Below are positions 2,472 through 62,693 of a stretch of 64,000 bases of DNA, piece by piece. Origin of the DNA: Candidatus Aminicenantes bacterium (lineage in GTDB: Bacteria; Acidobacteriota; Aminicenantia; S016-38). A program made the position numbers and the translations under genes. The notes under the pieces are model-generated. The model did no database searches and was not told the DNA's origin. It worked only from the letters and a program-made list of their open reading frames with translations. The stretch spans positions 245-64,244 of the forward strand of contig JALXBI010000050.1 in the NCBI GenBank assembly GCA_026991555.1, given 5' to 3'. Every line of letters begins with the position of its first letter. The first letter of the stretch is position 1.

Positions 2472-2663
2472 TTATATTTCTGCAAGGTTCACATAAGCGT
2501 TGGGGTCCTTTCTTTCCTTTTTGGCCTTTTTCAGGTGCTCTTTTACTTCCTCTTCAAGGTCCAGGCCCAGAAGTTCCTCTATTTTCTTGTATTCTTTCCA
2601 GGGAATGATTATCTCCGCAGGTTTTCCCTTTTCGTCGTAAATTATTTTCTTGTGAATCTTCAT
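2472..2663 (-). CDS. small antitoxin-like protein (Phd/YefM- or AbrB-like, uncertain), orphan
   Basis: An internal start MKIHKK is preceded by GGAGG. The KIIYDEKGKPAEIIIPWKEYKKIEELLG pattern resembles the DNA-binding antitoxin families. Confidence 0.3.
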   Translation of the reverse strand: MKIHKKIIYDEKGKPAEIIIPWKEYKKIEELLGLDLEEEVKEHLKKAKKERKDPNAYVNLAEI

Positions 2664-2827
2664 TCCTCTTCCTCCAGATACATTATACCATCTTCCCACC
2701 ATGCACGAAAAGGCACTGAGCCTCTCTTCCCTAAAAAGCGAAAAGGGAACAGACCATGAACCAAAGGTTCGGGCAAATTTTATTTGATTTTTTCATACAT
2801 TATCATATAATATATGAGGAAGTAATC

Positions 2828-3055
2828 ATGGTGAGAAAAACTGTTAACATTAGCGAAGATTTAATAAAAGAACTCAAGGTATATGCCAGGAAGGAATCCA
2901 GGGATTTTTCCAGCGCATTGAGGCACATCTTAAGGATAGGTCTTCTTGCCCTTCAGAACCCGGAACTTACAGCCAGGGAAATAATGGATATTCTGGAAGC
3001 AAAAGCGGAACTGGAAGAAGGTCTGATAGAGGAATTTACCCTTGAAGATATTTGA
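2828..3055 (+). CDS. ribbon-helix-helix (CopG-like) antitoxin
   Basis: ATG at 2828 (MVRKTVNISEDLIKELKVYARKE...). Short and basic, and it overlaps the following RelE-like gene by 14 nt. Confidence 0.55.
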   Translation: MVRKTVNISEDLIKELKVYARKESRDFSSALRHILRIGLLALQNPELTAREIMDILEAKAELEEGLIEEFTLEDI

Positions 3056-3269
3056 AACGAGAAAATTTCGGCAGTTGAGGAAAAAAATCAGGGATGATAG
3101 GGAGAAGCAAGCCCTTAAGAGGGCAATATTGGAGATCGTCCAGAACCCCCTGGCTGGCAAGAAGTTGAAGGGGGAATTCAAGGAATTTCGCAGTTTCCGA
3201 TATTTTTCCAGGGGCCAAGAAAGGAGACTTATCTATAAATACGAAAATCAGGCGCTTTACCTTATCTAA
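3042..3269 (+). CDS. relE: RelE/ParE-family toxin, C-terminus apparently truncated
   Basis: MKIFETRKF...LEIVQNPLAGKKLKGEFKEFRSFRY...RLIYKYENQALYLI matches the RelE/ParE pattern, but it stops before the usual C-terminal ighRkdvY segment. The last codons lie inside repeat block A1. Confidence 0.55.
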   Translation: MKIFETRKFRQLRKKIRDDREKQALKRAILEIVQNPLAGKKLKGEFKEFRSFRYFSRGQERRLIYKYENQALYLI

Positions 3270-3329
3270 AATTTTCTCTACTGGAGTTCTACATTCTATC
3301 AGTCCATTTTGCCCTGGAAGTAAAGTTCT
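3230..3329. repeat. split direct repeat copy A (38-nt block 3230-3267 and 31-nt block 3299-3329)
   Basis: Block 1 is tatctataaatacgaaaatcaggcgctttaccttatct. Block 2 is tcagtccattttgccctggaagtaaagttct. Both recur at 4284-4387. Confidence 0.7.
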
Positions 3330-3342
3330 GTGTCCCCAATCA

Positions 3343-3360
3343 GGGACAGGTCCGATTTTG
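3343..3360 (-). repeat. single inverted copy of the GGAC-CT-GTCC short-repeat family
   Basis: gggacaggtccgattttg is the near reverse complement of aaaattcggacctgtccc, which is repeated at 53251-53327 and 57560-57776. Confidence 0.5.
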
Positions 3361-3400
3361 ACCTTCCAATAAATCGGGTGACTCATGATAAAATAGTCTT

Positions 3401-3679
3401 ATGAAGGAAAAGAGATTAAAGGAGCTTATAGAAAAAAATAAGCCTCTTTTCTGGTGGATTAAGGAACCGGATAAAATAAGCGAAGAACTGGTGGTTGAGA
3501 CTATTCTAAACTACGGAACCAGAGAGAGCGTAAAGGAGCTTTTTGAAATTCTTGGAACGGAAAGGGTGGCGGAGATATTCTTTTCTCAGATAAAAAGAAA
3601 GAGGAAGAATTACCATCCGAGAACCATAAATTTTTTCACCCTTTATTTCAGCCATGCACGAAGAGATTCTAACACCTGA
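3401..3679 (+). CDS. small partner protein of the AbiEii-like toxin (putative antitoxin)
   Basis: ATG at 3401. Overlaps the downstream nucleotidyltransferase gene by 26 nt. Basic C-terminus. Confidence 0.3.
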   Translation: MKEKRLKELIEKNKPLFWWIKEPDKISEELVVETILNYGTRESVKELFEILGTERVAEIFFSQIKRKRKNYHPRTINFFTLYFSHARRDSNT

Positions 3680-4268
3680 ACAGAGCGAACTCCTCCCCTT
3701 GCTGAAGATGTTTTCCGAAGAATTTTATCTTGCTGGAGGAACTGCAATAGCTCTTTACCTCGGCCATAGAAGGTCCATTGATTTTGACCTTTTCACGAAA
3801 AAACTTCATCCCATGAGGGTAAAGAACAGGATAAAAAAATCAGGGTTCAATGTGGATAGCATAATATTTGAAAGCAGCGAGGAGCTCCACTTGGTGGTAA
3901 ACTCTGTCAAAATAAGTTTTGTGGAGTTTCCCTTTGATATTCCTCCTCCTGTGCTTTTCAAAGACATCATTACCCTTCCCTCCCTTTTAGATCTTGCAGC
4001 GATGAAGGCTTACGCTCTGGGAAGCAGGGCTAAATGGAAGGACTATGTGGATTTTTATTTTCTTTTAAAATACAAATTCACGGTGGAAGAAATCATAAAA
4101 AGGGCAAAGGAGATATTCTCAGGCTATTTCAACAGTAAGCTTTTCCTTGAACAATTGGCTTATTTTGAGGATATAGATTACAGCGAAAATGTGGATTTTA
4201 TAAAAGAGGCTCCTTCTGATGAGGAGATAAAGGAATTTTTAAGGGAGGTTTCCCTGCAGGATTTTTAG
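3654..4268 (+). CDS. AbiEii/AbiGii-family nucleotidyltransferase toxin (type IV TA / abortive-infection family)
   Basis: The N-terminal YLAGGTAIALYLGHRRSIDFDLF motif is typical of this nucleotidyltransferase family. Confidence 0.6.
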   Translation: MHEEILTPEQSELLPLLKMFSEEFYLAGGTAIALYLGHRRSIDFDLFTKKLHPMRVKNRIKKSGFNVDSIIFESSEELHLVVNSVKISFVEFPFDIPPPVLFKDIITLPSLLDLAAMKAYALGSRAKWKDYVDFYFLLKYKFTVEEIIKRAKEIFSGYFNSKLFLEQLAYFEDIDYSENVDFIKEAPSDEEIKEFLREVSLQDF

Positions 4269-4283
4269 CCCCCTTGCAAAGCC

Positions 4284-4387
4284 TATCTATAAATACGAAA
4301 ATCAGGCACTATACCTTATCTCCTTTGGTCCCAGGGAGAAGATTCTTTTTATAATCTCAGTCCATTTTGCCCTGGAAGTAAAGTTCT
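4284..4387. repeat. split direct repeat copy B (block 4284-4321, 36/38 identical to A1; block 4357-4387, 31/31 identical to A2)
   Basis: Direct comparison with 3230-3329. The internal spacers differ (31 vs 35 nt). Block B2 overlaps the stop of the minus-strand gene 4357..6132. Confidence 0.7.
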
Positions 4388-6132
4388 ATGCCCTTTACCG
4401 CCCGTAGGCCGTCGGCTATGGCTGATATGGCATCCGCCACCCTGTTGGCCACATCTCCTCCTGCGAATATCCCTTCCACCGAGGTCATCTGCCGGTGGTT
4501 TACCTTTATTCTTCCCCTTTCCACTTCCATTTTCTCGGCTATTTCCGGGGGAAGGAAACTCAGGTCAGCCTGCTGGCCTATGGCAACTATTATCCTGTCC
4601 ACCACAAGCTCGTATTCCTCCCCTTCTATAAGAACAGGTTTGGGCCTCTTTCCTGGCCCCTGGTCCACCATTTTCGCCTTTCCGTAAACCAGTTTGACTT
4701 TACCTTCAGGGGCATCCTCTACCCTTATGGGGATAATCTTTTCCCATATCCTCACCCCTTCTTCCTCTGCCCCTTCAATTTCCTCGTGGTCTGCGGGCAT
4801 ATCCACCTTGCGGCGGCGATAGGCTATGGTAACTTCGGCTCCCAGTCTGCGGGAAACCCTGGCAGCATCCATGGCCACATCCCCTCCACCTATGACCACC
4901 ACCTCTTTCCCAACCTCCACAGGTTCTTTGAAGTTAATCTTTCTGAGAAAATCTATGGCATAGATTACATTAGGATGGTCTTCTCCGGGAACCCCTAAGG
5001 TCCAGGGTTTCATAAGTCCAACCCCTATGTATATGGCATGGTGTTTTTTCATGAGTTCCCTGAACCTCTCCTGGTCCACGAAATAGTTAAGCTTAAGTTC
5101 CACACCCTGGCTAAGTATGAAATCCACTTGTTTTTTAAGGGATGGGAAGGGGAAGCGGTATTTGGGAATTCCCGCCATGGTCATGCCGCCCGCCTCAGGC
5201 ATGGCCTCGTAAACGGTTACCTTGTATCCCCGAAGGGCAAGGTAGTAGGCGGCGGTGAGCCCCCCAGGGCCTGCCCCTATTATTCCCACGGATTTGTCCT
5301 TGGGCTCTGCCTTCTTAACCTTTATTACCTGCTTCAGGTCAGAGAACCTTTCAGTGGCAAACCTCTTGAGCCATCTTATGGCAACGGGGTCGCCCTCGTG
5401 GCCTAAGGAACAATAGGATTCGCACCTTCTGGTGCAGACCTTTCCGCAGAGCTCCGCAAAGGGGTTGTTCTCATACATGATGTTCACGGACCTGGCGTAT
5501 TCCCCAGAGGCTATGGCCCTTATGTAATCGGGTATGTGCATGCGGTCAGGACATCCGGCTATACAGAGGCCACATCCCACGCAGCGGTCCGCCTCCCTGC
5601 GGGCCTCCTCCTCGGCATACCCCAGGACCACCTCGGCAAAGGTCTCCACCCTTTCTTCCGGAGGAAGTTCCCTCATGGGAACCCTGTGGTAATCGGTGAA
5701 ACTGTGCTCCTTGTCCTTCCTGTATCCCTTTTCCTTTTTCTCAAATCCCTTTATGTGATAACCGGGTATGTAAACGAAGTCGTCGGGGGTTTCCCTTACC
5801 CAAATGTATTCGTTGGTCATTCTCAAGGAGGTGGTGGGACACGAGTCCACGCAAAGGCCGCACCAGCAACACCTTCCGTAATCAATTCTGGGACGGAAGC
5901 CTGAATCCCCCTTCTTGGGCTCTATTCCCTCCACAGGGACCATATCTATGGCTTCATTGGGACAGACTGCGGCGCATGTTCCGCACCCTATGCATTTTTC
6001 AAGGTCATTTACATGGAATCCCCTGTATCTTTCGGCAGCCTCCCTGGAAACCTTGGGAACGAGGATGGTATGGGGCCTTTTGGCTATCTGCCTCCAGGCA
6101 CCTAAGGGTTTTAAAACTTCTTTGAGTCCCAT
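4357..6132 (-). CDS. fusion protein: NuoI/MbxN-like 2x[4Fe-4S] ferredoxin plus GltD/NfnB/SudA-like NAD(P)H-dependent FAD oxidoreductase
   Basis: N-terminus has CIGCGTCAAVCP and CCWCGLCVDSCP (a NuoI-type dicluster). Next come CVGCGLCIAGCP and CGKVCTRRCESYC (GltD N-terminal Fe-S region). Then GIIGAGPGGLTAAYYL (FAD Rossmann fold) and VVVIGGGDVAMDAA (NAD(P)H Rossmann fold). RBS AGGGAGG lies upstream. Confidence 0.7.
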   Translation of the reverse strand: MGLKEVLKPLGAWRQIAKRPHTILVPKVSREAAERYRGFHVNDLEKCIGCGTCAAVCPNEAIDMVPVEGIEPKKGDSGFRPRIDYGRCCWCGLCVDSCPTTSLRMTNEYIWVRETPDDFVYIPGYHIKGFEKKEKGYRKDKEHSFTDYHRVPMRELPPEERVETFAEVVLGYAEEEARREADRCVGCGLCIAGCPDRMHIPDYIRAIASGEYARSVNIMYENNPFAELCGKVCTRRCESYCSLGHEGDPVAIRWLKRFATERFSDLKQVIKVKKAEPKDKSVGIIGAGPGGLTAAYYLALRGYKVTVYEAMPEAGGMTMAGIPKYRFPFPSLKKQVDFILSQGVELKLNYFVDQERFRELMKKHHAIYIGVGLMKPWTLGVPGEDHPNVIYAIDFLRKINFKEPVEVGKEVVVIGGGDVAMDAARVSRRLGAEVTIAYRRRKVDMPADHEEIEGAEEEGVRIWEKIIPIRVEDAPEGKVKLVYGKAKMVDQGPGKRPKPVLIEGEEYELVVDRIIVAIGQQADLSFLPPEIAEKMEVERGRIKVNHRQMTSVEGIFAGGDVANRVADAISAIADGLRAVKGIELYFQGKMD

Positions 6133-9275: not shown

Positions 9276-12200
9276 TTCACCCCTGTAAAGGCATAAAGGA
9301 TAATGATTGAAATGAGAATCACATAGGCGGCGTAGGTGTTAACATCCCCTGTGTAAATTCTCCTTCCCATCTCAGCAAAGGCCCCAATCCATTCGTAAAT
9401 TCCCCTCCATATTTTGCTCACTAAAGGATAAATCAGCCATTTCACCGCCCTGCGGAAGTGGTCGTAAAGACCATAACCGAAGTGAAGGTCCTGCGGGGTG
9501 CGGGGAACCTCCCCTGAATAGCCCACATCCAGCTGACCTACCTTTCTTATTCTGGCCGAGGTGAGGGCGAAGAATACCAGGGCAAGGAGGAAGGAGCCCA
9601 CAAAGAAAACCATGAGGAAGAAGGCATTCCAGTGGCCGAGTTTAGAAACAATCCCCAGGGCCTTATGATAATGGAAACCTGGGTTTTCCATACCCGGAAT
9701 ACCGGAAAGAACTTTGTTTATCGGATTGAGAAGAAGATTGGGGAAAGCACCCAGAACTCCAAGAGGAATTAAAAGGATTACCTCCACCAAGGCTATTGGC
9801 CAGGGGGCTTCCTTTACATTCTCGTTTTCCTCCTGGAGCTGGCCCAAGAAAACCGCATGGAGAATCTTAAAGCAGTAAAGGAAGGCTAAGGTGGAGGCGA
9901 GAAAAGCCACCACGGTTATAAAAATCCATCCCTTCTCAATGAGGGCCGAATAAAGGAGCCATTTTGCTGCGAATCCCGAAAGGGGAGGAATCCCGGCTAA
10001 GGCTATTATGGCAAGAAGGGTGGCAAAGAAGGTAAGGGGCATTCTCCTTATAAGCCCTCCCATGTGGGGCAGGTAGGAGGTTCCTACCCTGTAAATTATC
10101 CCTGCTGCTGCCACGAATAGAAGTCCCTTGAAAATGAAATGGTTTACCGTATGGTAAAGGGCAGCGTTCCATCCTAAGGGAGTAAAAAGGGAAAGCCCTA
10201 TAAGGATATAGCCCACCTGTCCCACGGAGGAATAGGCAAGGAGTTTTTTAAGATCGTCCTGAAACACTGCAAGGAGGGTCATGAAAAAGGCGGTCAGTGC
10301 TCCAGCCCATCCAAGAAGGTAACGAAAACCTGCCCCGGAAAGAGCAGTAAGCACATAGAGGAAAACCAGGCCAGAGCCGAAAACCCCCATTTTGGACATT
10401 ATCCCGGAAAGCAGGGGCGTAAATTCGTCGGGACTTTCCCCGTAGGCATCCCTGGCCCATATGTGGAGCGGGGAGGTGGCCATTTTAACCAGGAAGGCTA
10501 AGGAAATAAGGACCGCTGGAAGAAGGCCGTAAAATTTACCCGGAGCCAAACTCAGGGAAGGAAGGAGGTAAATTCCCCCGAGCATGGCATAAGCCCCTGC
10601 TGCGGAAAATACCGCATAAATCCAGGCAGCCTTTTTCCCTTTTCCCATGTTTATAAGGAGGAAGGAAGCCCAGCTCATTATCTCCCAGAAAACGAATACC
10701 GAAAGCCAGGTGGTGGAAAGGACAAGCCCGGCCATGGAAAAGAGAACAACCAGGTAGGCAGGATAAAAGGATGAGGAAAGTTTTTTAGAGCCGGGATAGG
10801 TGGCCAAAAGAAGGACCGCACCTCCGAAAAGAACAAGGGCAAGGAAAAACCCGTGAAGGTCGGGTTTTATGTGCGGATAGAGGGAATATATCCCGTAGAC
10901 CAAAACCCCCAAGGAGGCTATCCACTGAAGCAGCCTTGAGGCTCCAAGGAAGTAAACCAGAAGGGAAATTCCAAGAAGGAGCAAAATTTCTGGTTTTACC
11001 GGAATGTGAATTTTATCGGTGAACATTCCCCAGACCACTGGCACAGAAGCAATAAGAATCAGGGAAGATATTAATGGAGAGGCCAGATTTCTTCCCACCT
11101 TCTTTCCTTCCCCCTCGGAGGCTATCCTGTAAAACCGGAAGTAATAAACCACCTCGGCCAGGGCCCCGAGAAGAACCAGCCCCACAACCCAGGAATAATT
11201 TCTGGGAATAGCGAAGATGAGAAGTATCTTGGCCCAGAATCCCGGGAAGGGAGGAACCCCTGCAATGGAGAAAACCGATGTGGAAAAGGAAAACTTGAAT
11301 ACGGGATTGGAGGCAAGAACACCCCTCCAGCCATCAATTTCCCTTTCCTTCACATTGTCCGCAAGGAGAAAGAGGGAGGACTTGGCGAAGGAGTGATTAA
11401 AGACCAGAAGGACCATGGCAAGGCCCATCATGAGCCTTGAGGACGAAGAGAACGAAGGATTCAGGAAAAATCCGGCTGCCAGAATCAGAAGTCCCAGCTG
11501 GGCCACCGAGGAATAACCGAGGAGCCTTCGGACATCCCTCTGCCTCCAGGCGAAAAACTGGCTTACTAAATAGGTCATCCCTCCAAAGAGAAGGGCCAAG
11601 TGGAAAAAGGAAAACAGGGGAAGATAATGGGCCGTTTTTACGAAAACCAGATAAAAGGCCTTTACCGCCGCCCCTGCCAGAAGGGCCACCACCACAGGGT
11701 CTGCCCCCTGATAAACATCTAAGGCCCAGCCGTTTACAGGGAAAACCTCCAGTTCAATAAGAAGCCCGGCAAGAATCATAAGGGTAATCAGGGCCAGAAC
11801 TGCGGAGGAAATTCCCCCGGCCAGCTTGCCGGCTATATCCAGCATGTTCAGGCTTCCGGTGGCCTTGTAAAGAAAAACCACTCCTAAAAGTATGAAGGTG
11901 GAACTTATGGAACCTATAACCATGTATTTAAAGGCAGCCTCAAGGGCCCTCTCATCCTTAGAAGAAGCCACAAGCCCGTAGGCTGCTATGGAAGTAATTT
12001 CCACGAAAACGAACAGGTTGAAAAAGTCTCCGGTGAAGCTTATCCCCGTGGCACCTAAGGAGAGAAGGAGAAACAGGATGAGAGCCTTCCCTTCGGGCTG
12101 GGGAAGCCCCCTTACGAACCAGTGTATAGCACCTAAAAGGGCAATGGTGAAAATTAGAAATCCTAAGGCAGCCTCCGCTTTTCCTACCAGCAGGTTAATT

Positions 12201-13451: not shown

Positions 13452-13693
13452 TTCTCATACCTCTCAGTTTTTCTTATGGCGATTATGAAAATAAGGGTGG
13501 TAAGTCCTGCACCTATGGCAGCTTCGGTCATGGCCACATCAGGAGCCTGAAGGTAAAGGTAAACTATGGAAGCCACCAAGGAAACGAAACCCGCTGCCAC
13601 CACCGCTGCCAGAAGGTCCTTGGTCTCCACAGCATATATGGCCAGACCCAGCATGAGGAAAAGAAGGAAAAGCATGAAATATTCAAGAATCAT
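13448..13693 (-). CDS. MbhD/MbxD-like small membrane subunit (MrpB N-terminal-like); start chosen at the internal Met
   Basis: The ORF track extends to 13798 but overlaps mrpG out of frame. MILEYFMLFLLFLMLGLAIY...AIGAGLTTLIF resembles a hydrogenase subunit-D/DUF4040 protein. Confidence 0.45.
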   Translation of the reverse strand: MILEYFMLFLLFLMLGLAIYAVETKDLLAAVVAAGFVSLVASIVYLYLQAPDVAMTEAAIGAGLTTLIFIIAIRKTERYEK

Positions 13694-34294: not shown

Positions 34295-34919
34295 ATCCTG
34301 CTTTCTTAATAAGAGCCTTCTCAAAGTTTTTGGCAAAAAGCTCTGCATCCCTGCTGGAACCCACGATCTTCCCCCAATGCATGGGTATGGCAACTCCCAC
34401 ATCCATTTTCTTTGCTGCCTCCACCGCCTGAGCCCAATCCATGGTATATGTCCCGCCCACGGGCAAAAGGGCCACATCCACCTTTATACCCTCCATTTCA
34501 GGAATGAGGTCGGTATCTCCTGCATGATAAACGCTGCCTATAGGGGTCTCCACAATGTAACCTACCCAGCCCTTTTCCTTCGGGTGAAAACTCTTCTCCA
34601 GGTTATAGGCTGGAATTGCCCTTATGAGAAATTCCCCTAAGGTAATATCCTGTCCAGGCATCACATAGACCGCGTTGGTATGAGTAAATTTTTCCCTGGC
34701 CTCCTGCGGTAGCACCACCACGGTCCCCTTTCTTTCCACCTTTTCAATGTCCTGGGGAGAGAGGTGGTCAAAATGGGAGTGGGTTATCAATATTATGTCC
34801 GCTTTAGGTAAACCCTCTGGAATAGAATAGGGATCAATATAAATGTTTTTATTCCCCACCTTTAAAAGAAAACTGGCATGTCCGAGCCAGTAGACATTAT
34901 CCACTAAGTCCTGCCTCAT
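34281..34919 (-). CDS. MBL-fold metallo-hydrolase
   Basis: ILITHSHFDH (HxHxDH) motif. Confidence 0.7.
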   Translation of the reverse strand: MRQDLVDNVYWLGHASFLLKVGNKNIYIDPYSIPEGLPKADIILITHSHFDHLSPQDIEKVERKGTVVVLPQEAREKFTHTNAVYVMPGQDITLGEFLIRAIPAYNLEKSFHPKEKGWVGYIVETPIGSVYHAGDTDLIPEMEGIKVDVALLPVGGTYTMDWAQAVEAAKKMDVGVAIPMHWGKIVGSSRDAELFAKNFEKALIKKAGYEKE

Positions 34920-34924
34920 AATTC

Positions 34925-53250: not shown

Positions 53251-53327
53251 CTGTCCCCTTTGGTGAATTCGGACCTGTCCCGTTTTTCAGGAGAATTGGA
53301 AATTCGGACCTGTCCCTAAAATTTCGG
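53251..53327. repeat. two tandem copies of the GGAC-CT-GTCC short repeat in a divergent intergenic region
   Basis: gaattcggacctgtcccgttttt at about 53265-53287 and gaaattcggacctgtccctaaaatttcgg at about 53298-53327. Confidence 0.7.
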
Positions 53328-53401: not shown

Positions 53402-54793
53402 ATGAGAACAAAAATAGTGGCAACCACGGGACCCTCCCTTGGCACCCTCCAGGAGCTGGAGGAAGCCATAAAAATAGGGGCAAGGGTATTCAGGCTCAAT
53501 TTTTCCCACGGAGAATACTCCTCCCACAGGAAGATTGCAGAGGCTATAAGGCAGGCAGAGAAAAGCACGGGCATTCCCGTGGCCATCCTCCAGGACCTTT
53601 CCGGTCCCAAAATCCGGGTGGGAAAGCTTCCTTCCCCTATTACATTAAAGAAGGGTCAGAAAGTCCGGGTGAGGAGGGAAGGGAAAGCAGGACCAGGGGA
53701 GATCCCCGTTAACTATCCTTACATAGTGGAAGACCTTTCTCCCGGCGAGAGGATTTTTATTGAGGACGGGAAAATAGCCCTTAAGGTTATAGGAAAGGGC
53801 AGGGATTTCGTGGAGGCCGAGGTAATTTCACCGGGGACGGTGAAGGCCGAGAAGGGGGTAAATCTCCCGGACTCCTCTCTCAGGATTCCCCCCTTCACCG
53901 AAAAGGACCGCAGGGACTTAGAATTCGGACTTTCCTTAGGAATTGACCTTATTGCCCTCTCCTTCACCAGGTCCGGGGAAGATGTAAAGCCGGTAAGGGA
54001 AATGGCCGGGGAAATTCCGGTAATCGCCAAGGTTGAAAGGAAGGAGGCGGTGAAAAATCTCCCCTCCATAGTGGAAGCCTTTGACGGCATAATGGTGGCC
54101 AGGGGGGATTTGGGGGTGGAGGTTCCCCTGGAGGAGGTCCCTATTCTTCAAAAGAGGATGATTTCCATGGCCAACTCCGCAAGGAAAATGGTAATAACCG
54201 CCACCCAGATGCTCAGCACCATGATAGAAAATCCCTTCCCTACCAGGGCCGAGGTGAGCGATGTGGCCAACGCAGTTTTTGATGGCTCCGATGCCCTGAT
54301 GCTCTCCGGGGAGACTGCCATAGGTGCTTATCCCTTAGAGGCCATTTCCACCATGGCAAGGGTAATTGAGGAGGTGGAAAAAAGTCCTGAATTCTGGGCC
54401 ATGCGAAACCTGCTGGATAGCAACCCCTCTGACCCCACCGAGGCCTTAGCGGAAAGTGCGGTTATAACGGCAGAGAAAATAGGCGCCGAGGCTATAATAG
54501 TCTTTACCACCTCAGGCGCCACCGCTATAAAGGTTTCCAAGTTCAGGCCAAAAACTAAAATATTCGCCATAACCCCAGACCAGGGCGTAAGAAGGCGGCT
54601 TGCCCTGGTTTGGGGAGTTGATTCCTTCCTCCTTCCCTTCATGGAAAACACAGACCTCATGATGGAAAAGGGGGTGGATCTCCTCCTCTCCTCTGGAAAT
54701 TTAAGCCCTGGTAGCACCGTGGTGGTAACCGCAGGTAAAACCCCCATGAGGGGAGCCACAGACATGGTTAAGGTCTTAAAGGTGGGAGGTTGA
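53402..54793 (+). CDS. pyk: pyruvate kinase
   Basis: MRTKIVATTGPS start and the canonical PK domain pattern. Confidence 0.9.
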   Translation: MRTKIVATTGPSLGTLQELEEAIKIGARVFRLNFSHGEYSSHRKIAEAIRQAEKSTGIPVAILQDLSGPKIRVGKLPSPITLKKGQKVRVRREGKAGPGEIPVNYPYIVEDLSPGERIFIEDGKIALKVIGKGRDFVEAEVISPGTVKAEKGVNLPDSSLRIPPFTEKDRRDLEFGLSLGIDLIALSFTRSGEDVKPVREMAGEIPVIAKVERKEAVKNLPSIVEAFDGIMVARGDLGVEVPLEEVPILQKRMISMANSARKMVITATQMLSTMIENPFPTRAEVSDVANAVFDGSDALMLSGETAIGAYPLEAISTMARVIEEVEKSPEFWAMRNLLDSNPSDPTEALAESAVITAEKIGAEAIIVFTTSGATAIKVSKFRPKTKIFAITPDQGVRRRLALVWGVDSFLLPFMENTDLMMEKGVDLLLSSGNLSPGSTVVVTAGKTPMRGATDMVKVLKVGG

Positions 54794-54794
54794 A

Positions 54795-55769
54795 ATGGGA
54801 CTTTTTGACCTGGAGGAAAAGCCTACGGTTAGCAGGATAAAAAGGGAAAAGGAAGAGAGGACCTTCAAGGGAACCTTCCTGATAAGGGAGATTTCCCTTA
54901 GACAGGGACAGGGCGGTCCCTATCTCTCCTTCATCCTCATGGACAGAACCGGGGCTATTTCCGCTTCCTTCTTCGGTGGGAAACTGCAGGACCGGTTAAT
55001 TGCCAGGGACGAGATAACCGCAGACCTCCTCCAGGAAGGGGTTTATGAGGTATCCCTCAGAAGGCAGAAAGAAAGGAACAATGTGGTGGTGGATTCCCTG
55101 AGGAGGGTTGAAGCAGATCCCGGGGATTACACAATAATTCCCAGGGCAGTTTACCCCGATGCCAAGGACATTCGCCAGGAGCTGGACCGGATGGCGGAAG
55201 AACACATAAAAACCCCTGAGGGAAGAACACTTTATAAGCTCTTCTGGAAGAAATACGGGGAAAGGTTTCTAAAGGCAAAGGGGGGTGTCAGAAAGCACCA
55301 TCATCAGGAAGGAGGCCTTGCCCTTCACACCTACATGGTTCTTAAAATAGCCCTTTTTCTGGGAGAACTCTATTCCTTGGACAGGGAGGTTATCTTTCTG
55401 GCAGGGCTTCTTCACGATGTGGGAAAAATGGAGGAAATAGGCGAAGACGGATTCACCAGGGAGGGGGACCTTCTGGGACACACGGTTCTTTCCCTCCTTG
55501 AGGCGAGGCATCTTTGCGAGGAGGCGGGATACACGGGAAAAAGGGAGGCAAATCTCCTCCACTGCATAGCCTCCCACCACGGTCAGTTGGAGTTTGGGGC
55601 TCCTGTTTCTCCGAAAACCCTTGAGGCCTTCGTCCTTCACATAGCTGACTTGGCGGACTCAAAAATATACCAGTTTTTTAAGGCCATTTCAGAAATAGGC
55701 CAGGGTGAGGAAAGCTCTGGGTACTTTAAGGACCTGGCCCGCAAAATTTACCTCCTTGACGGGGATTGA
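54795..55769 (+). CDS. YhaM-like OB-fold/HD-domain 3'-5' exonuclease
   Basis: N-terminal OB fold. HD motif LHDVGK and downstream His cluster. Confidence 0.65.
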   Translation: MGLFDLEEKPTVSRIKREKEERTFKGTFLIREISLRQGQGGPYLSFILMDRTGAISASFFGGKLQDRLIARDEITADLLQEGVYEVSLRRQKERNNVVVDSLRRVEADPGDYTIIPRAVYPDAKDIRQELDRMAEEHIKTPEGRTLYKLFWKKYGERFLKAKGGVRKHHHQEGGLALHTYMVLKIALFLGELYSLDREVIFLAGLLHDVGKMEEIGEDGFTREGDLLGHTVLSLLEARHLCEEAGYTGKREANLLHCIASHHGQLEFGAPVSPKTLEAFVLHIADLADSKIYQFFKAISEIGQGEESSGYFKDLARKIYLLDGD

Positions 55770-55861
55770 GCCGTTTAGCACCCAACCTAAGTAAATTTTT
55801 TCTGAAAGATTTGCGGTGAGGTGATATTATATTTTAGTAAATCCTAAAAAGGAGGTCTGAA

Positions 55862-57508
55862 TTGAAAAGAAAAATTTTAGTTTCAGTGCTTTTCCTTTCT
55901 ATCTTGGGATTTGCGGCATCAAAGGACATCTATGTAAGGGCAGGGGCCAGCGGAAACGGAACTAAAGAGGCTCCTTACGGTTATCTTTGGAAGGCCCTAC
56001 GAAAGGCAGAAAGGGGGGATGTGATACATGTGGCCCAGGGAATTTATTACGGAAAGGGCGGAAGCGGACATTTCGTAATCTCTGTTCCAGACCTGAAATT
56101 GGTGGGAGGATACAGCAAGGATTTTTCTCAGAGAGATCCCTTTAAATACCTGACCATACTTGAAAGGGAGAAAAATTATCGGGGAAAATTCACGGGATTG
56201 GGAGAGGGAATAATTGAAGGAGATTATCAGAAGGACCACAGCGGGCTGGTGGTGGACGGTTTTGTCCTCAATGGGGAAACGAGGAACGGTTACGCTCCGG
56301 ATAAAAGCAAAATCGTCCCCAGAAAATCCTGGAGGGGAGCCCTTTTTAAGGCCTACAGCCCAAACATAAAAATAAGAAACTGCATTCTCATAAATCCCTA
56401 CGGCAAGGGAATTTATGTGAAATGGCAGGGGAAAGAAAACGAAATTTCCAATAATTTCATAATAAATACCTTTTACGCAGCCATAAGCACCAGGAGCGCC
56501 CAGGCCGATGCCAGGATTCTCATAAAGAACAACACCATAGCCTTCGGATGGTTCCAGCCGGGAAACGGCGGGTCCTATGGCGTATTCGTGGGAAGACAGG
56601 GAGAGGCGATAATTGAGGACAATATTTTTGCCTATTTGCTCACCGAGGGGGGAGAGGCAGGATACGGGGTAAGCAATACCTTCGGAAACGACCTCACAGT
56701 GCTTAAGGGTAATATTTTCTATCAGAATCAGGGCGGATACTATGTTTACACCGATGAGGACGGAAGCACATTGGTGGTATGGAAAAAACAGGACCTTCAG
56801 GACCTGAACTCAGATCCGGAATCCTACATGCTGGCAGAGGCAGGGGGAAACTCTGACCAGGACCCCGGACTGAGGCCCGACAAATGGTTCTTCCGCAAGT
56901 TCTCAAATTTCGTGGCATCAAAACCTGGAAAACTCAGGATGGACGATATAAACCGTCTTAGAAGAATGCTGGGGCTTCCCCTGCAGGCAGAGAAGGCAAG
57001 CGCCCGCTCCAATTGGGGCATGCCCTATCCCCTGGAAAAGGTGGTTCCCAACCTGGTTTCCCCCACGGGAAAGGGGGTTCAGGTAAACAAAACCTTTGAG
57101 ACTTATACTTCTGCGGCAAAGATTCAGGCTCCTTCCTCCTACCAGGCAGTGGAATTTGACCAGTTCTTCGTGGATGCGAAGGGAAAGGAATTCAAAGGCG
57201 AAGCAGTGGAGTTTAAAGCCGGCATAGGCTCCTCCTGTTATAATTACTTCCTCAAGGATGCTCCCGAGAAGGATTACGCATGTATAAAACTGCTAAAACC
57301 CGGCGAATCCGATTTTACCAGAAAATACATCTTCGGATATTTCCTGAAAGGCTCAAAGGCCCACCAGAAACTCCTTAAATATTTAAAAAGAAGGAGGACC
57401 TACAACCAGCGGGGAGGAATAAGGATAAGGGGAAAAGCCTATTACATAGGAAACCCCACTTACCGTTATCCCGTGGCGGTTATAGTTTACGAGGTAAGGA
57501 AAAGATAA
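55862..57508 (+). CDS. secreted protein with parallel beta-helix-like repeats
   Basis: TTG start after the AAGGAGG RBS, signal peptide, repeated N-x-I beta-helix-like units. Confidence 0.4.
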   Translation: MKRKILVSVLFLSILGFAASKDIYVRAGASGNGTKEAPYGYLWKALRKAERGDVIHVAQGIYYGKGGSGHFVISVPDLKLVGGYSKDFSQRDPFKYLTILEREKNYRGKFTGLGEGIIEGDYQKDHSGLVVDGFVLNGETRNGYAPDKSKIVPRKSWRGALFKAYSPNIKIRNCILINPYGKGIYVKWQGKENEISNNFIINTFYAAISTRSAQADARILIKNNTIAFGWFQPGNGGSYGVFVGRQGEAIIEDNIFAYLLTEGGEAGYGVSNTFGNDLTVLKGNIFYQNQGGYYVYTDEDGSTLVVWKKQDLQDLNSDPESYMLAEAGGNSDQDPGLRPDKWFFRKFSNFVASKPGKLRMDDINRLRRMLGLPLQAEKASARSNWGMPYPLEKVVPNLVSPTGKGVQVNKTFETYTSAAKIQAPSSYQAVEFDQFFVDAKGKEFKGEAVEFKAGIGSSCYNYFLKDAPEKDYACIKLLKPGESDFTRKYIFGYFLKGSKAHQKLLKYLKRRRTYNQRGGIRIRGKAYYIGNPTYRYPVAVIVYEVRKR

Positions 57509-57559: not shown

Positions 57560-57776
57560 AAAATTCGGACCTGTCCCGTTTTTGGAATCAAAATTCGGAC
57601 CTGTCCCGTTTTCAAAATTCGGACCTGTCCCGTTTTTGCAAAATTCGGACCTGTCCCGTTTTTGGGCTCGTTTTTGGAATCAAAATTCGGACATGTCCCG
57701 TTTTTGGGCTGGAAGAAGGGAGAATTTTACCGCCCGGCCCCTGACACCTAACACAGCATTCTGTCCCTAAAATTCG
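57560..57776. repeat. tandem array of five ~24-bp direct repeats AAAATTCGGACCTGTCCCGTTTTT plus a partial terminal copy
   Basis: Copies start near 57560, 57590, 57614, 57640 and 57682, with spacers of 1-18 nt. The fifth copy has one substitution (ACATGTCC). The partial copy ctgtccctaaaattcg is at 57761-57776. Confidence 0.85.
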
Positions 57777-57867: not shown

Positions 57868-59097
57868 TTAAATTCTTTTCAGAATATTAACAGTCCTTTC
57901 AAGATTGTATTTGGCAAGGCACACATCTCCTTCCTGCCCTAGCAGAAGCATAATTAGGTTTTTCCCATGACGGTGAACCAGGAAATTGCCTTCAGAAGCT
58001 TCGGTCAGGAAACTCCTAAGTTCCTGAGCAGTGGCCTTTTTGTAAACATTGAATGCCAGGGCAAACAACCCGGTCATCCTTGAGAAAAACTCCTCCATTT
58101 TCTCCTTCTCTCTTTCGTTTATAACATCAATGGCCATTATTCTTTCATCTTCCCCTATAATGGCCGATGCGAGGTAACCCGGAACCGTTCTCAGGCTGGC
58201 CAGCACTTCTTCCTGAGAAAGCAGAGGTTCGTGGGCCTCTATTTCCTCCTCTTCCATTTCATGACGTCCCAGGGGTTCTTCATCCATGGGGGGTAATTCC
58301 GAGGTATCCGCCTCTCTGGGTTCTTTCTGCTCCCGGGGAGGTTCCTCCTGGGCAGAACTCATTTTTGCAGTGTCCACTTCTTTTGCTGTTTTTCCCTTTG
58401 TCTCACCCATGCCCTTCCTTTCGTCCTTTATCTTTATGGACTCCATTATGAGCTCTTCCAGGGGCTTTTCTACGGTTATTAATTTCCTCTTTCCCAGCCT
58501 TTTCATGACGACGATGTTCACGTTTTCCCAGGTTAGTATTTCAAGGGCTGCTTCTTCTCCCTCCTCCTTTTCTGTCTTAGCGTGCACGAGAACCCCTTCG
58601 TCAAAGTGGAGGGCCCCCCTTCTTCCGTCCTTGGTGGTTACTATCATGGTGCATGTTTTCTCCTCATACTGGATGAGCTGGGCCAGGTGCGCCGCAGAGA
58701 GAAAGGTAAATTCTTCCTTCATGAGGAGGTCCTGGTCAAAGACTTCAAGGATGGCCTTGGCCAGCTGGTCCAGGGATATGGGCTTTTCCAGATACCTTAT
58801 GGCTCCTATACTTTCGGCTTTTAATTTTATCGGTAAAGAGCCGTAGGCTGTTATAAGCACGAAGGGAATGTAAGGAAATTCCTGCACCACAAAGGATAAA
58901 AGGTCCAGCCCGTCAACTTCCGGCATCTTAAGGTCCGAAACCACCAGGTCTATTTTCTCCTTCCGGAGTATTTCCATGGCCTTTTTTCCTGATGAGGCGA
59001 AGATGGGCTCTATCCGATCCCTGTATTTTTTCAGACCATCTTTAAGGGTTAAAAGAAGGTTTTCATCGTCATCTACTATGAGAACTTTTTTGGTCAT
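57868..59097 (-). CDS. response regulator: REC plus DUF4388 plus acidic linker plus Roadblock/LC7-like domain (paralogue of 17961..19022)
   Basis: Aligns by eye along its whole length with the regulator at 17961. REC: VLIVDDDENL...DLKMPEVDG. DUF4388: FTFLSAAHLAQLIQYEEKTCTMIV. Confidence 0.65.
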   Translation of the reverse strand: MTKKVLIVDDDENLLLTLKDGLKKYRDRIEPIFASSGKKAMEILRKEKIDLVVSDLKMPEVDGLDLLSFVVQEFPYIPFVLITAYGSLPIKLKAESIGAIRYLEKPISLDQLAKAILEVFDQDLLMKEEFTFLSAAHLAQLIQYEEKTCTMIVTTKDGRRGALHFDEGVLVHAKTEKEEGEEAALEILTWENVNIVVMKRLGKRKLITVEKPLEELIMESIKIKDERKGMGETKGKTAKEVDTAKMSSAQEEPPREQKEPREADTSELPPMDEEPLGRHEMEEEEIEAHEPLLSQEEVLASLRTVPGYLASAIIGEDERIMAIDVINEREKEKMEEFFSRMTGLFALAFNVYKKATAQELRSFLTEASEGNFLVHRHGKNLIMLLLGQEGDVCLAKYNLERTVNILKRI

Positions 59098-61196: not shown

Positions 61197-61254
61197 ATCC
61201 TAATTATAGCAGAGATTGACAGGGGTGAAGGCCTTGATATATAATTTTTTACCT

Positions 61255-61328
61255 GGCGGCGTAGCTCAGTTGGTTAGAGCATGCGGCTCATATCCGCAGC
61301 GTCGGGGGTTCAAATCCCTCCGCCGCCA
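61255..61328 (+). tRNA. tRNA with anticodon CAU (elongator Met, or Ile2 after lysidine modification)
   Basis: Cloverleaf: acceptor GGCGGCG/CGCCGCC, D-arm AGCTCAGTTGGTTAGAGC, anticodon stem TGCGG/CCGCA with loop CTCATAT, T-arm GGTTCAAATCC. CCA is not encoded. Confidence 0.85.
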
Positions 61329-61337
61329 TTTTTTTTT

Positions 61338-62693
61338 ATGCCCTACAGAAAGTTCAAGGAAACGGTCAGAAAAAATTCTCTTATTTCCCCGGGGGATAGA
61401 ATTCTGGTGGCTTTTTCCGGAGGACCGGATTCCACGGTTCTTCTCCATTTTCTTTTTCTTTTTACCGAAGAGATAAATTATTCTTTGGCAGTGGCCCATT
61501 TTAACCACGGCTTGAGGGAGGAAGCGGACCATGAGGAGGAATTCTGCAGGCAAAGGGCCAGGGAATACGACCTTCCCTTTTTCTCGGCTAAAGAGGATGT
61601 GAGAAGATTTGCCAGAGAAAGGGGATTAAACCTTGAGGAGGCAGGCCGGATTCTGAGGTATGAATTTCTGGACCAATTGGCCAGGAAAGAGGGCTACAAT
61701 AAAATTGCCACAGGCCATACCCTTTCCGACCAGGCTGAAACCCTCCTTTACAGAATGCTCAGGGGAGCTGGGACCAGCGGTCTTTCCGGAATACCTCTGC
61801 TGCGGGAGGGAAAATACATAAGGCCCCTGCTTAATATTTCCCGCAGGGAAATAATGGACTTTATTAAAAGGGTGGGAATACCCTTCCTTGAGGACCCGTC
61901 CAATCTGGACCTTTCCTTTGACCGAAACTGGTTAAGGCACAAACTGATCCCTATTTTAAAGGAAAGGTTCTCCGGGATTGAGGAAACTCTGGCCCGGGAA
62001 GCGGACATCCTCTATCACGAAAACCTGTGGATTGATTCCTTGGTGGAGGGGGAACTGGAGAAAAGACTTAGGGGAAGAAGACTGAAGGTTGAGGACTGGG
62101 ATTTGCTGCCTCTGGGTTTTAAAAGGAGACTTTTAAGGGGCTTTTTGAGAAAAATGAGGGGGAACCTCAGGAGAATAAATTTTGACCACATTGATCACCT
62201 GGTTAACCTGAAGCCTGGAGAAGAATACTACATACCCGGAGGGGAAAGGGTTTTAAGGCAGAGCAGGCATTTCTTTTACCTTGGAAAAATTCCCGAATAC
62301 AGGGAGCTTTACCTTGAGATTCCCCGCCCTGGTGAATACGAGGCGGAGGGGTTGTGGAGGATAAAACTCAGGGAATGGGAAGGAGAGGGGGATTTTTCCA
62401 GGAGGGCCGTTGCCTACATCTCCGGGGTGGAACTTCCCATCGTGGTAAGAAACTGGAGGCCCGGCGATAAATACACTCCCTTAGGCTCTGACAGTCCCAG
62501 GAAGCTTTCCAACATGTTCAACGCCGGGGGGATTCCCGGGCCTTTAAGGAGGTTCATTCCGGTTTTTGAAAAGGACGGGGAGATAATCTGGGTTTATTCC
62601 CTTCCAGTGGCTGAGCGGTTTAAGTTTACAGGTAAGGGCTTTGTGGTAAAGGTAATCCCGCTGCTTCCGGTTTTTCAGGCCCTGGTGGATTGA
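61338..62693 (+). CDS. tilS: tRNA(Ile)-lysidine synthetase
   Basis: PP-loop SGGPDSTVLL plus TilS downstream domains. Start taken at the ATG at 61338, because the track ORF start at 61281 lies inside the tRNA. Confidence 0.85.
   Translation: MPYRKFKETVRKNSLISPGDRILVAFSGGPDSTVLLHFLFLFTEEINYSLAVAHFNHGLREEADHEEEFCRQRAREYDLPFFSAKEDVRRFARERGLNLEEAGRILRYEFLDQLARKEGYNKIATGHTLSDQAETLLYRMLRGAGTSGLSGIPLLREGKYIRPLLNISRREIMDFIKRVGIPFLEDPSNLDLSFDRNWLRHKLIPILKERFSGIEETLAREADILYHENLWIDSLVEGELEKRLRGRRLKVEDWDLLPLGFKRRLLRGFLRKMRGNLRRINFDHIDHLVNLKPGEEYYIPGGERVLRQSRHFFYLGKIPEYRELYLEIPRPGEYEAEGLWRIKLREWEGEGDFSRRAVAYISGVELPIVVRNWRPGDKYTPLGSDSPRKLSNMFNAGGIPGPLRRFIPVFEKDGEIIWVYSLPVAERFKFTGKGFVVKVIPLLPVFQALVD

Follow-up and report, generated by a model that had tools for sequence, protein, structure and literature searches.

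Intergenic repeats in a Candidatus Aminicenantes genome are probably REP-like terminal sequences of a Y1 (HUH) transposase element

We analysed a 64-kb stretch of a contig from a Candidatus Aminicenantes bacterium (JALXBI010000050.1; "the window" below means this whole stretch) and, within it, a 23-nt unit that is repeated five times in tandem between two genes. Our results indicate that the units are probably, at odds of about three in four, repetitive extragenic palindromic (REP)-like repeats: dispersed, non-autonomous terminal sequences of an IS200-like Y1 (HUH) element of the type of the RAYTs (tyrosine transposases associated with REPs) or of the RAYT-like TIRYTs, whose genes carry terminal inverted repeats (TIRs). 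By sequence comparison, the unit forms the outward-facing end of predicted Y1-transposase elements in other lineages. It also exists as free intergenic copies, both in other lineages and in the window. Finally, as judged from the assembled alleles, the copy number of the array differs between near-identical strains.

The array occupies positions 57560-57704 of the forward strand. A first-pass annotation of the window had described five tandem direct repeats starting at 57560, and we found that these are four exact copies of the 23-mer AAAATTCGGACCTGTCCCGTTTT and a fifth with a single mismatch. The units are separated by 7, 1, 3 and 19 nt, and Tandem Repeats Finder reported a period of 26, 4.0 copies and a score of 162. 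Each unit contains the dyad GGAC-CT-GTCC with A4/T4 flanks. The larger period that had been proposed, in which every repeat stands between GGAATC and GGGCT, survived only in part: GAATC precedes units 1, 2 and 5 only, and GGGCT follows units 4 and 5 only. Further downstream lies a half-unit of 16 nt, in which a run of 14 nt (CTGTCCCTAAAATT) is identical to sequence on the 3' side of the 53299 copy. The motif is not a random recurrence. With up to three mismatches allowed, the 23-mer occurs six times in the window and not once in 100 shuffles, the 10-mer core with up to one mismatch gave 18 matches against 4.3 +/- 2.2 in shuffles, and the core is the top-ranking repeated 11- and 12-mer of the window.

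In total, the 64 kb contain eight full and two half copies of the repeat at three loci (chance expectation, 0). All are intergenic, as first annotated, in a window of which the open reading frame (ORF) map leaves about 5% intergenic. Two ORFs that run over copies (3036-3386 and 57582-57770) are spurious. The second, already suspected of being so, consists of translated repeats; the first is a minus-strand ORF across the 3341 copy, and the real genes there are the plus-strand ParD/ParE and AbiEi/AbiEii pairs. The array itself is flanked by the 3' ends of two convergent genes, one for a beta-helix protein (55862-57508, +) and the other for a response regulator (57868-59097, -). Its neighbours encode the beta-helix protein, the response regulator, which has a PATAN/DUF4388 domain and not a helix-turn-helix (HTH), and a histidine kinase.

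The evidence for a transposase connection comes from other lineages, in which we found the same core on both sides of transposase genes. On one contig (L147; GC content 0.68), inverted core doublets stand on each side of a 225-aa ORF. On another (L138/L151; GC content 0.50), three core copies lie upstream of a 223-aa ORF and an inverted doublet follows just past its stop codon. Both ORFs matched Pfam Y1_Tnp (E-values of 1.4e-13 for L147 and 1e-16 for L138), and for both the top model was NCBIfam NF047646, 'REP-associated tyrosine transposase', with 82.4 bits for L147 (cut-off 80) and 72.3 bits for L138. The closest sequence match in the PDB was 4ER8, the E. coli TnpA-REP bound to a REP hairpin (E-value 5.6e-7). 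Similarly, an AlphaFold model built with 53 homologues, at a mean confidence (pLDDT) of 92.9, had 4ER8 as its top fold match (E-value 4.6e-9, TM score 0.74 on the target), followed by the ISDra2 and IS608 transposases (2XMA and 2VJV; E-values of about 1e-5). The HUH motif (NHVH) and the tyrosine motif (YIERNP) are invariant across the 53 homologues. The L147 and L138 transposases are only 38% identical to each other, and their flanks carry the same core. These findings favour one of the suggestions of the first-pass annotation, namely that the repeats are remnants of a small mobile element, in that the same core brackets Y1/HUH (REP-associated) transposase genes on other contigs.

The transposase family is large, with 5890 homologues at E-values of at most 1e-10, and its named members belong to Desulfuromonadales, Thermodesulfobacteriota, Thermodesulfovibrionales and Omnitrophota. 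In homologues of about 50% identity (L160-L162), the gene lies between inverted ends GGG(G)AGTGTCCC-TA(A/G)TT, of which the upstream one precedes the ATG by about 55 nt and the downstream one runs over the stop codon, and the TGTCCC end faces outward on both sides. Overall, the inverted ends that flank the transposase gene in related elements have the form ...(G/C)TGTCCC-TA(A/G)TT, and L162 carries an additional free inverted doublet 1.5 kb away. Inverted repeats that bracket a Y1 gene, with one of them overlapping the gene end, were thus seen on L160, L161, L162, L147 and L138, all outside the window. Many family members end in ...GECP*, the translation of GGGGAGTGTCCCTAG, and the C-terminus of the L147 protein, ...RDRSEL*, is the window core translated.

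Two further observations concern these gene-bearing elements. In many of the transposases P0127-P0236, and also in L161/L162 at about 10660-10690, the terminal inverted repeat GGGGAGTGTCCC-TAG encodes the last four codons and the stop codon (...GECP or ...GKCP); because the repeat supplies these codons, the end of the element and the C-terminus of the protein are physically coupled. On the 5.1-Mb chromosome-scale contig L160 (8464-13802), two copies of the Y1 transposase unit lie about 3.3 kb from each other inside a larger repeat, which also holds a DDE_Tnp_1 transposase and a split DUF815 gene. This duplication indicates that the gene-bearing element is multi-copy in some hosts.

Copies in other lineages were collected by a metagenome scan with the exact 16-mer AATTCGGACCTGTCCCKWWW, which matched 27 contigs. 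The exact 16-mer is imposed by this search; secondary copies on the same contigs are unbiased. We found that the core TTCGGACCTGTCCC occurs in the intergenic DNA of several unrelated lineages as single units, as tandem pairs and as inverted pairs. Head-to-tail pairs with a 24-nt period are present on L144/L153, L148 and L156, and inverted doublets are spaced 7-15 nt apart on L138, L143, L147 and L149 and 47 nt apart on L152. The GC content of the multi-copy contigs ranges from 0.41 to 0.69, a width which argues that the motif is carried by several unrelated lineages. We estimate roughly that chance could explain as many as about a dozen of the contigs with a single hit. In the secondary copies, GACCTGTCCC is constant, the 5' TTCG is variable and CTGTCCC-TAATT is able to stand alone, and an alignment of 46 distinct units has the invariant columns G-A-C-x-T-G-T-C-C-C.

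Other searches returned little. A scan of a 596-Gb genome collection with the 14-mer TTCGGACCTGTCCC gave 119 single matches in unrelated taxa, which is at chance level, and these loci (L001-L119) are uninformative. Viral contigs scanned with a 20-mer and a 19-mer gave 0 matches, so that nothing points to a phage origin. The units translated in six frames and joined into a synthetic protein query, aimed at arrays miscalled as genes, yielded nothing that scored, and a literature search with the literal repeat sequence returned only primers and p53 sites.

As a separate observation, the stretch of 8-11 nt that immediately follows ...GTCCC on its 3' side is duplicated in tandem two to four times in at least five lineages (stutters in Table 1); these stutters may be a transposase footprint or a slippage hot spot. 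On L156 (3595-3745), moreover, the head-to-tail repeat pair lies between two 39-nt imperfect duplicates of a gene 3' end that include the stop codon, the same pattern of duplication as at 3230-4393 of the window, described below.

The age of the array can be judged from closely related strains. The exact beta-helix protein that adjoins the array was found on four further contigs, L120, L121, L122 and L123. The first of these (a Logan assembly) matches the window at 100% identity, the five units included, and L122 (from the metagenome-assembled genome GCA_027013365.1) has the identical five units and 5 single-nucleotide polymorphisms (SNPs) in 2.8 kb. Since the five-unit structure is repeated in independent assemblies with different flanking SNPs, these data indicate that the array is not an assembly artefact. 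L121, from a different sample, differs by 17 SNPs over 10.9 kb (99.84% identity) and has a single unit at the array site, ...agaatcAAAATTCGGACCTGTCCCGTTTTtgggctgg..., and L123 stops inside unit 1. The junction on L121, ...CCTGTCCCGTTTTTGGGCTGG, is absent from the five-unit allele as a word longer than about 20 nt, which makes collapse by the assembler unlikely. We read the difference between one and five units in these assemblies as a real strain polymorphism.

The existence of a near-identical strain with one unit suggests that the array is a recent local amplification. Similarly, pieces of the left flank of the array (GAATC), of its right flank (TGGGCT) and of the unit end (CGTTTTTGG, which stands twice behind unit 4) recur at its internal junctions, as expected if tandem duplications followed one another. 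More distant relatives carry no repeat at the corresponding gene. With TTHT_0497 of Thermotomaculum hydrothermale the beta-helix protein shares 69% identity, and it has closer relatives; the window accordingly comes from an uncultured relative of that thermophilic acidobacterium. At the loci with a protein 69-82% identical to the beta-helix protein (L124-L132), the motif was not found in the roughly 20 kb available for each. Synteny is different at these loci, and the neighbours of the beta-helix gene are entirely different.

Together, these results suggest how the copies may have arisen. In the organism of the window, the cognate Y1 transposase would be encoded outside the 64 kb or would already have been lost. 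By analogy with TnpA-REP and IS608, this enzyme would recognise the TGTCCC-containing unit and would cut and rejoin DNA there, and its action would seed copies in trans at new intergenic sites. A series of tandem duplications would then have expanded one unit on the spot into the five-unit array, likely through slippage or unequal exchange at the T-runs and possibly through repeated cleavage and rejoining by the transposase. As the product of a recent amplification, the array would be a young and variable by-product and not a conserved regulatory device, and if it affects the convergent genes beside it at all, this effect would be a secondary one.

Several points weigh against the assignment to REP-like element ends. 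A tblastn search of the 64-kb window found no Y1 transposase gene; we therefore infer mobilisation in this genome, and the link to a transposase is carried by the other lineages that share the core. We know of no TIRYT that has been characterised biochemically, and the cut-and-rejoin step is an analogy with the E. coli TnpA-REP and IS608. The conservation of the core across lineages is partly a matter of construction, as the metagenome matches were chosen by an exact 16-mer. The window contains no inverted doublet of full units, and all of its copies but one have the same orientation; the inverted doublet (REPIN) is the form thought to be mobile. The GT[AG]G tetranucleotide at the foot of REPs is likewise missing here: neither GTAG nor GTGG adjoins the units, and GTAG was seen only inside a related L160 variant, GGGTAGTGTCCC.

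The hairpin is also weak. As single-stranded DNA, one unit folds at -4.2 kcal/mol (z -1.4), with a stem of 3-4 bp, and covariation of the outer arms across the 46 distinct units is marginal (71.7% paired versus 69.1% when shuffled), with a similar score when the arm alignment is slid by +1. Given this weak covariation, we do not claim a conserved hairpin. Other forms fold better: the inverted doublet of other lineages reaches -24.7 kcal/mol, and L137-type units, which have longer arms, reach -9.3 kcal/mol (z -4.4).

We considered whether the units could instead represent a distinct, undescribed REP/TIR lineage, and regard this as unlikely. In such a lineage, the near-invariant asymmetric core CGGACCTGTCCC, common to Y1 transposases that are 38% identical and to hosts of 41-69% GC, would be read as a double-stranded dyad by the C-terminal helical domain, and not as a single-stranded hairpin with a GTAG foot. 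The transposase itself would make the stutters as well as the whole-unit and the long flanking duplications (3230-4393, L156). If this reading were true, it would amount to a new mode of Y1-transposase action. The proteins comprise 221-232 aa versus 165 aa for 4ER8, and their helical C-terminal region (residues ~142-205) is modelled confidently by AlphaFold. Within this C-terminal extension, no Pfam HTH model matched even at an E-value of 10.

An array of binding sites for a host protein, as first proposed, is quite unlikely. Each unit would then be a two-fold symmetric GGAC-N2-GTCC site with A/T-rich flanks for a dimeric regulator, replication initiator or nucleoid protein, and the array would build a nucleoprotein complex. 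The dyad and its A4/T4 flanks fit this proposal, the invariant GACxTGTCCC columns are what a sequence-specific protein would read, and a divergent promoter region contains the copies at 53264-53321. However, we found no specific support for it: the array is located between convergent gene 3' ends, no replication protein or DNA-binding regulator gene is adjacent, and strains that are 99.8% identical have either one unit or five. Furthermore, relatives with a 75-82% identical flanking gene have 0 copies in about 20 kb each, and the same core brackets transposase genes elsewhere. If any protein binds the units, the transposase itself is the obvious candidate. Iterons in the strict sense are direct repeats beside a rep or initiator gene and an AT-rich unwinding region; here no initiator gene is nearby and the units are dispersed, and we rejected iterons of a replication origin. 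Among other candidates, FadR/GntR operators, MetJ boxes, the multi-site ends of Tn7, Tn402 and IS21, DNA uptake sequences, attC sites and a fragment of the signal recognition particle RNA were dismissed on mismatching sequences.

It is very unlikely that the units are terminators, insulators or mRNA-stabilising hairpins selected between the convergent beta-helix and response-regulator genes. An intrinsic terminator is a stable GC-rich hairpin followed by a U-run, and the units, placed between convergent genes, do consist of a GC core followed by a T-run. The very stable inverted doublets of other lineages, some of them with flanking A- and T-runs (L147), point the same way, as does the influence on mRNA stability and termination that passages of PMC3733652 and PMC6006769 report for classical REPs. 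Nevertheless, the promoter and terminator scan gave no site in 57560-57710, and RNA folding of the array was no better than that of shuffles on either strand (z 0.05 and 0.41). The stem within a unit is short, the window is without inverted doublets of full units, and a near-identical strain has a single unit. Rfam gave no match for the array at gathering or relaxed thresholds. From these results, we rejected both an intrinsic terminator and a structured RNA. The microRNA 'hits' on L143 and L138 are merely inverted doublets.

The remaining explanations are extremely improbable. CRISPR arrays have unique spacers of about 26-72 nt and usually cas genes and a leader; a degenerate array of this kind, or a small RNA that acts as a sponge through repeated protein-binding motifs, would account for ~23-nt direct repeats at one locus and for the GGA motif in each unit, but the spacers are 1-19 nt (so that the first-pass annotation rightly discounted CRISPR), the units are dispersed in both orientations, no cas genes or domains were found among the window ORFs scanned, including those beside the array, no CRISPR or small-RNA family reached threshold, and the promoter scan named no site at the array. 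An assembly artefact or a chance low-complexity repeat, for which it speaks that short-read assemblies often mishandle tandem repeats and that several contigs end at or near units, conflicts with the identical five units in independent assemblies with different flanking SNPs, with the expectation of 0 and with the presence of the same sequence family in many unrelated metagenomes.

Table 1. Positions of repeat units, stutters and associated genes in the window and on other contigs.
Feature	Contig	Position	Strand	Sequence	Remark
Unit 1	window	57560..57582	+	AAAATTCGGACCTGTCCCGTTTT	exact; GAATC before
Unit 2	window	57590..57612	+	AAAATTCGGACCTGTCCCGTTTT	exact; GAATC before
Unit 3	window	57614..57636	+	AAAATTCGGACCTGTCCCGTTTT	exact
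Unit 4	window	57640..57662	+	AAAATTCGGACCTGTCCCGTTTT	exact; followed by short stutter (CGTTTTTGG twice, 57658-57678); GGGCT after
Unit 5	window	57682..57704	+	GGACATGTCC	central C>A; GAATC before, GGGCT after
Half-unit	window	57761..57776	+	CTGTCCCTAAAATTCG	terminal TGTCCC part only
Spurious 62-aa ORF	window	57582..57770	+		repeat units translated
Bare half-unit	window	53251..53257	+	CTGTCCC	13 nt upstream of next full copy
Full copy	window	53264..53286	+	TGAATTCGGACCTGTCCCGTTTT	divergent ABC-ATPase / pyruvate kinase intergenic region
Full copy	window	53299..53321	+	GAAATTCGGACCTGTCCCTAAAA	between ABC-ATPase gene and pyruvate kinase
Copy, one T shorter	window	3341..3359	-	AAAATCGGACCTGTCCCTG	between ParDE and AbiEi/Eii toxin-antitoxin modules
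Stutter	window	57658-57678		CGTTTTTGG	x2
Stutter	L137	~3222-3245		CCGAATTTC	x2
Stutter	L142	~2545-2585		CGAATTAA	x~4
Stutter	L139	~5405-5475		GTTTCGTTTCCC	
Stutter	L160	~9905-9945		TAATTTATGCG	x3
RelB-like antitoxin	window	2472-2702	-		
ParD-like/ParE-like pair	window	2756-3269	+		
AbiEi-like/AbiEii pair	window	3401-4268	+		

Elsewhere in the window, we recovered the two copies previously placed near 53251-53327, together with the bare half-unit beside them, and the single inverted copy placed near 3343. All copies had been taken to mark the edges of accessory-looking segments; this held for the 3343 copy, which lies between two toxin-antitoxin modules, and not clearly for those upstream of pyruvate kinase. 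Beside the 3341 copy, at 3328-3337, stands a partial half-unit in inverted orientation, ctgtGtcccc. The further contigs that we found for this locus were all short, and their sequence is the same.

The genes around the 3341 copy form a small toxin-antitoxin cluster (2472-4268). A split direct duplication of about 106 nt (3230-3335 / 4284-4393) encloses the copy at 3341-3359 together with the AbiEi/AbiEii cassette (3401-4268). It is made of blocks of 38 and 37 nt, each 95% identical, with about 30 nt of unrelated sequence in between, and the blocks are the 3' ends of the ParE-like toxin gene and of a minus-strand Fe-S oxidoreductase gene (4357-6132). The 3341 copy stands 5 nt off the inner edge of the first duplicate. 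In its arrangement, the duplication looks like an insertion footprint. At the other end of the window, the segment that encodes pyruvate kinase, an HD protein and the beta-helix protein (53402-57508) is flanked on both sides by repeat clusters of the same orientation, and a repeat-associated rearrangement of this segment is possible.

Two of the largest intergenic gaps of the window, 34478-34924 (the largest, 447 nt) and 13452-13682 (the third, 231 nt), contain no repeat copy and gave no Rfam match. We also noted that a tRNA with a CAT anticodon (61254-61329) lies directly upstream of tilS (61281-62693), which encodes tRNA-Ile lysidine synthetase. The listed tilS start overlaps the tRNA, which places the true start further downstream, and the tRNA could be tRNA-Ile2, the TilS substrate, instead of tRNA-Met.

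Our results suggest that the units are, most likely, selfish DNA of an ordinary kind that has been dispersed between genes and has multiplied there locally. One false lead is thereby removed, as the array is in all probability neither an iteron or operator array nor an odd CRISPR. For the annotation of such genomes, it follows that the units should be masked, that the repeat-derived ORF should be dropped, and that contig breaks and strain-level length variation are to be expected. The repeats of long, TIRYT-type Y1 transposases are barely studied. Those described here behave in a REP-like manner in several lineages, a relative of a thermophilic acidobacterium among them, in which they stand singly, as doublets and in tandem clusters, and the one-unit/five-unit polymorphism in near-identical strains provides a natural system for cluster growth. 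The near-invariant core common to distantly related transposases, the stutters and the long duplications of flanking gene ends hint at mechanistic features as yet undescribed for this transposase class.

Among known systems, the units resemble the proteobacterial REPs, including bacterial interspersed mosaic elements (BIMEs) and the REPIN-RAYT system, in being short, extragenic, weakly palindromic and multi-copy, and in occurring as singlets, inverted doublets and tandem clusters. In other lineages they flank a Y1/HUH transposase, and the top structural match of that enzyme is TnpA-REP (4ER8). They differ from REPs in that the hairpin of a single unit is marginal and the conserved part is a 12-nt asymmetric core, not a stem, and in that the host is a relative of an acidobacterial thermophile and not a proteobacterium. 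According to passages of PMC3733652, the units of REP clusters are tandemly reiterated along with pieces of flanking DNA.

The likeness to TIRYTs extends to the elements themselves. Passages of Di Nocera, De Gregorio & Rocco 2013 (PMC3733652) describe RAYT-like genes that have terminal inverted repeats and not canonical REPs, and name them 'TIRYT' in 'TIRtrons'; some of the TIRs overlap gene ends, TIRs are found as singles, dimers and clusters, and one sharply defined TIRYT group is acidobacterial. Many TIRYT TIRs carry GGGGWSAS, that is, GGGG[AT][CG]A[CG], as stated in parts of PMC3733652 and PMC6006769. Our elements share with these a Y1 transposase which, at ~220-230 aa, exceeds classical RAYTs in length, and flanking inverted repeats, one of which lies over the gene 3' end, as well as the occurrence as singles, dimers and clusters. 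Their motif, xGGGACAG/C, comes close to GGGGWSAS: when reverse-complemented, the unit (CGGGACAG in the window or AGGGACAG in other lineages) agrees with the TIR consensus at seven of eight positions, and relatives have xGGGACAC. In contrast, the inner half of the unit is TTCGGAC where GGGGAG is common, the unit lacks the consensus's first G, and the portions of PMC3733652 and PMC6006769 that deal with such families present none with this core.

Quentin et al. 2018 (PMC6006769) place the TIRYTs, in the passages concerned, in TnpA-Y1 subclass 2.1, which consists of long proteins with an HTH-like C-terminal extension, and the corresponding part of their survey records no REP-like hairpins near subclass 2.1 genes. 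The transposases studied here resemble this subclass in length and in their flanking repeats, and no Pfam HTH model matched in their extension. With the IS200/IS605 family (IS608, ISDra2), they share the HUH/Y1 catalytic fold and, presumably, the chemistry on single-stranded DNA; passages of PMC6006769 state that TnpA-REP and IS608 bind and cleave such sequences. The ends of IS200/IS605 elements are distinct subterminal hairpins and not inverted repeats, and those elements move whole, with their gene, whereas here the short end-sequence alone is multiplied.

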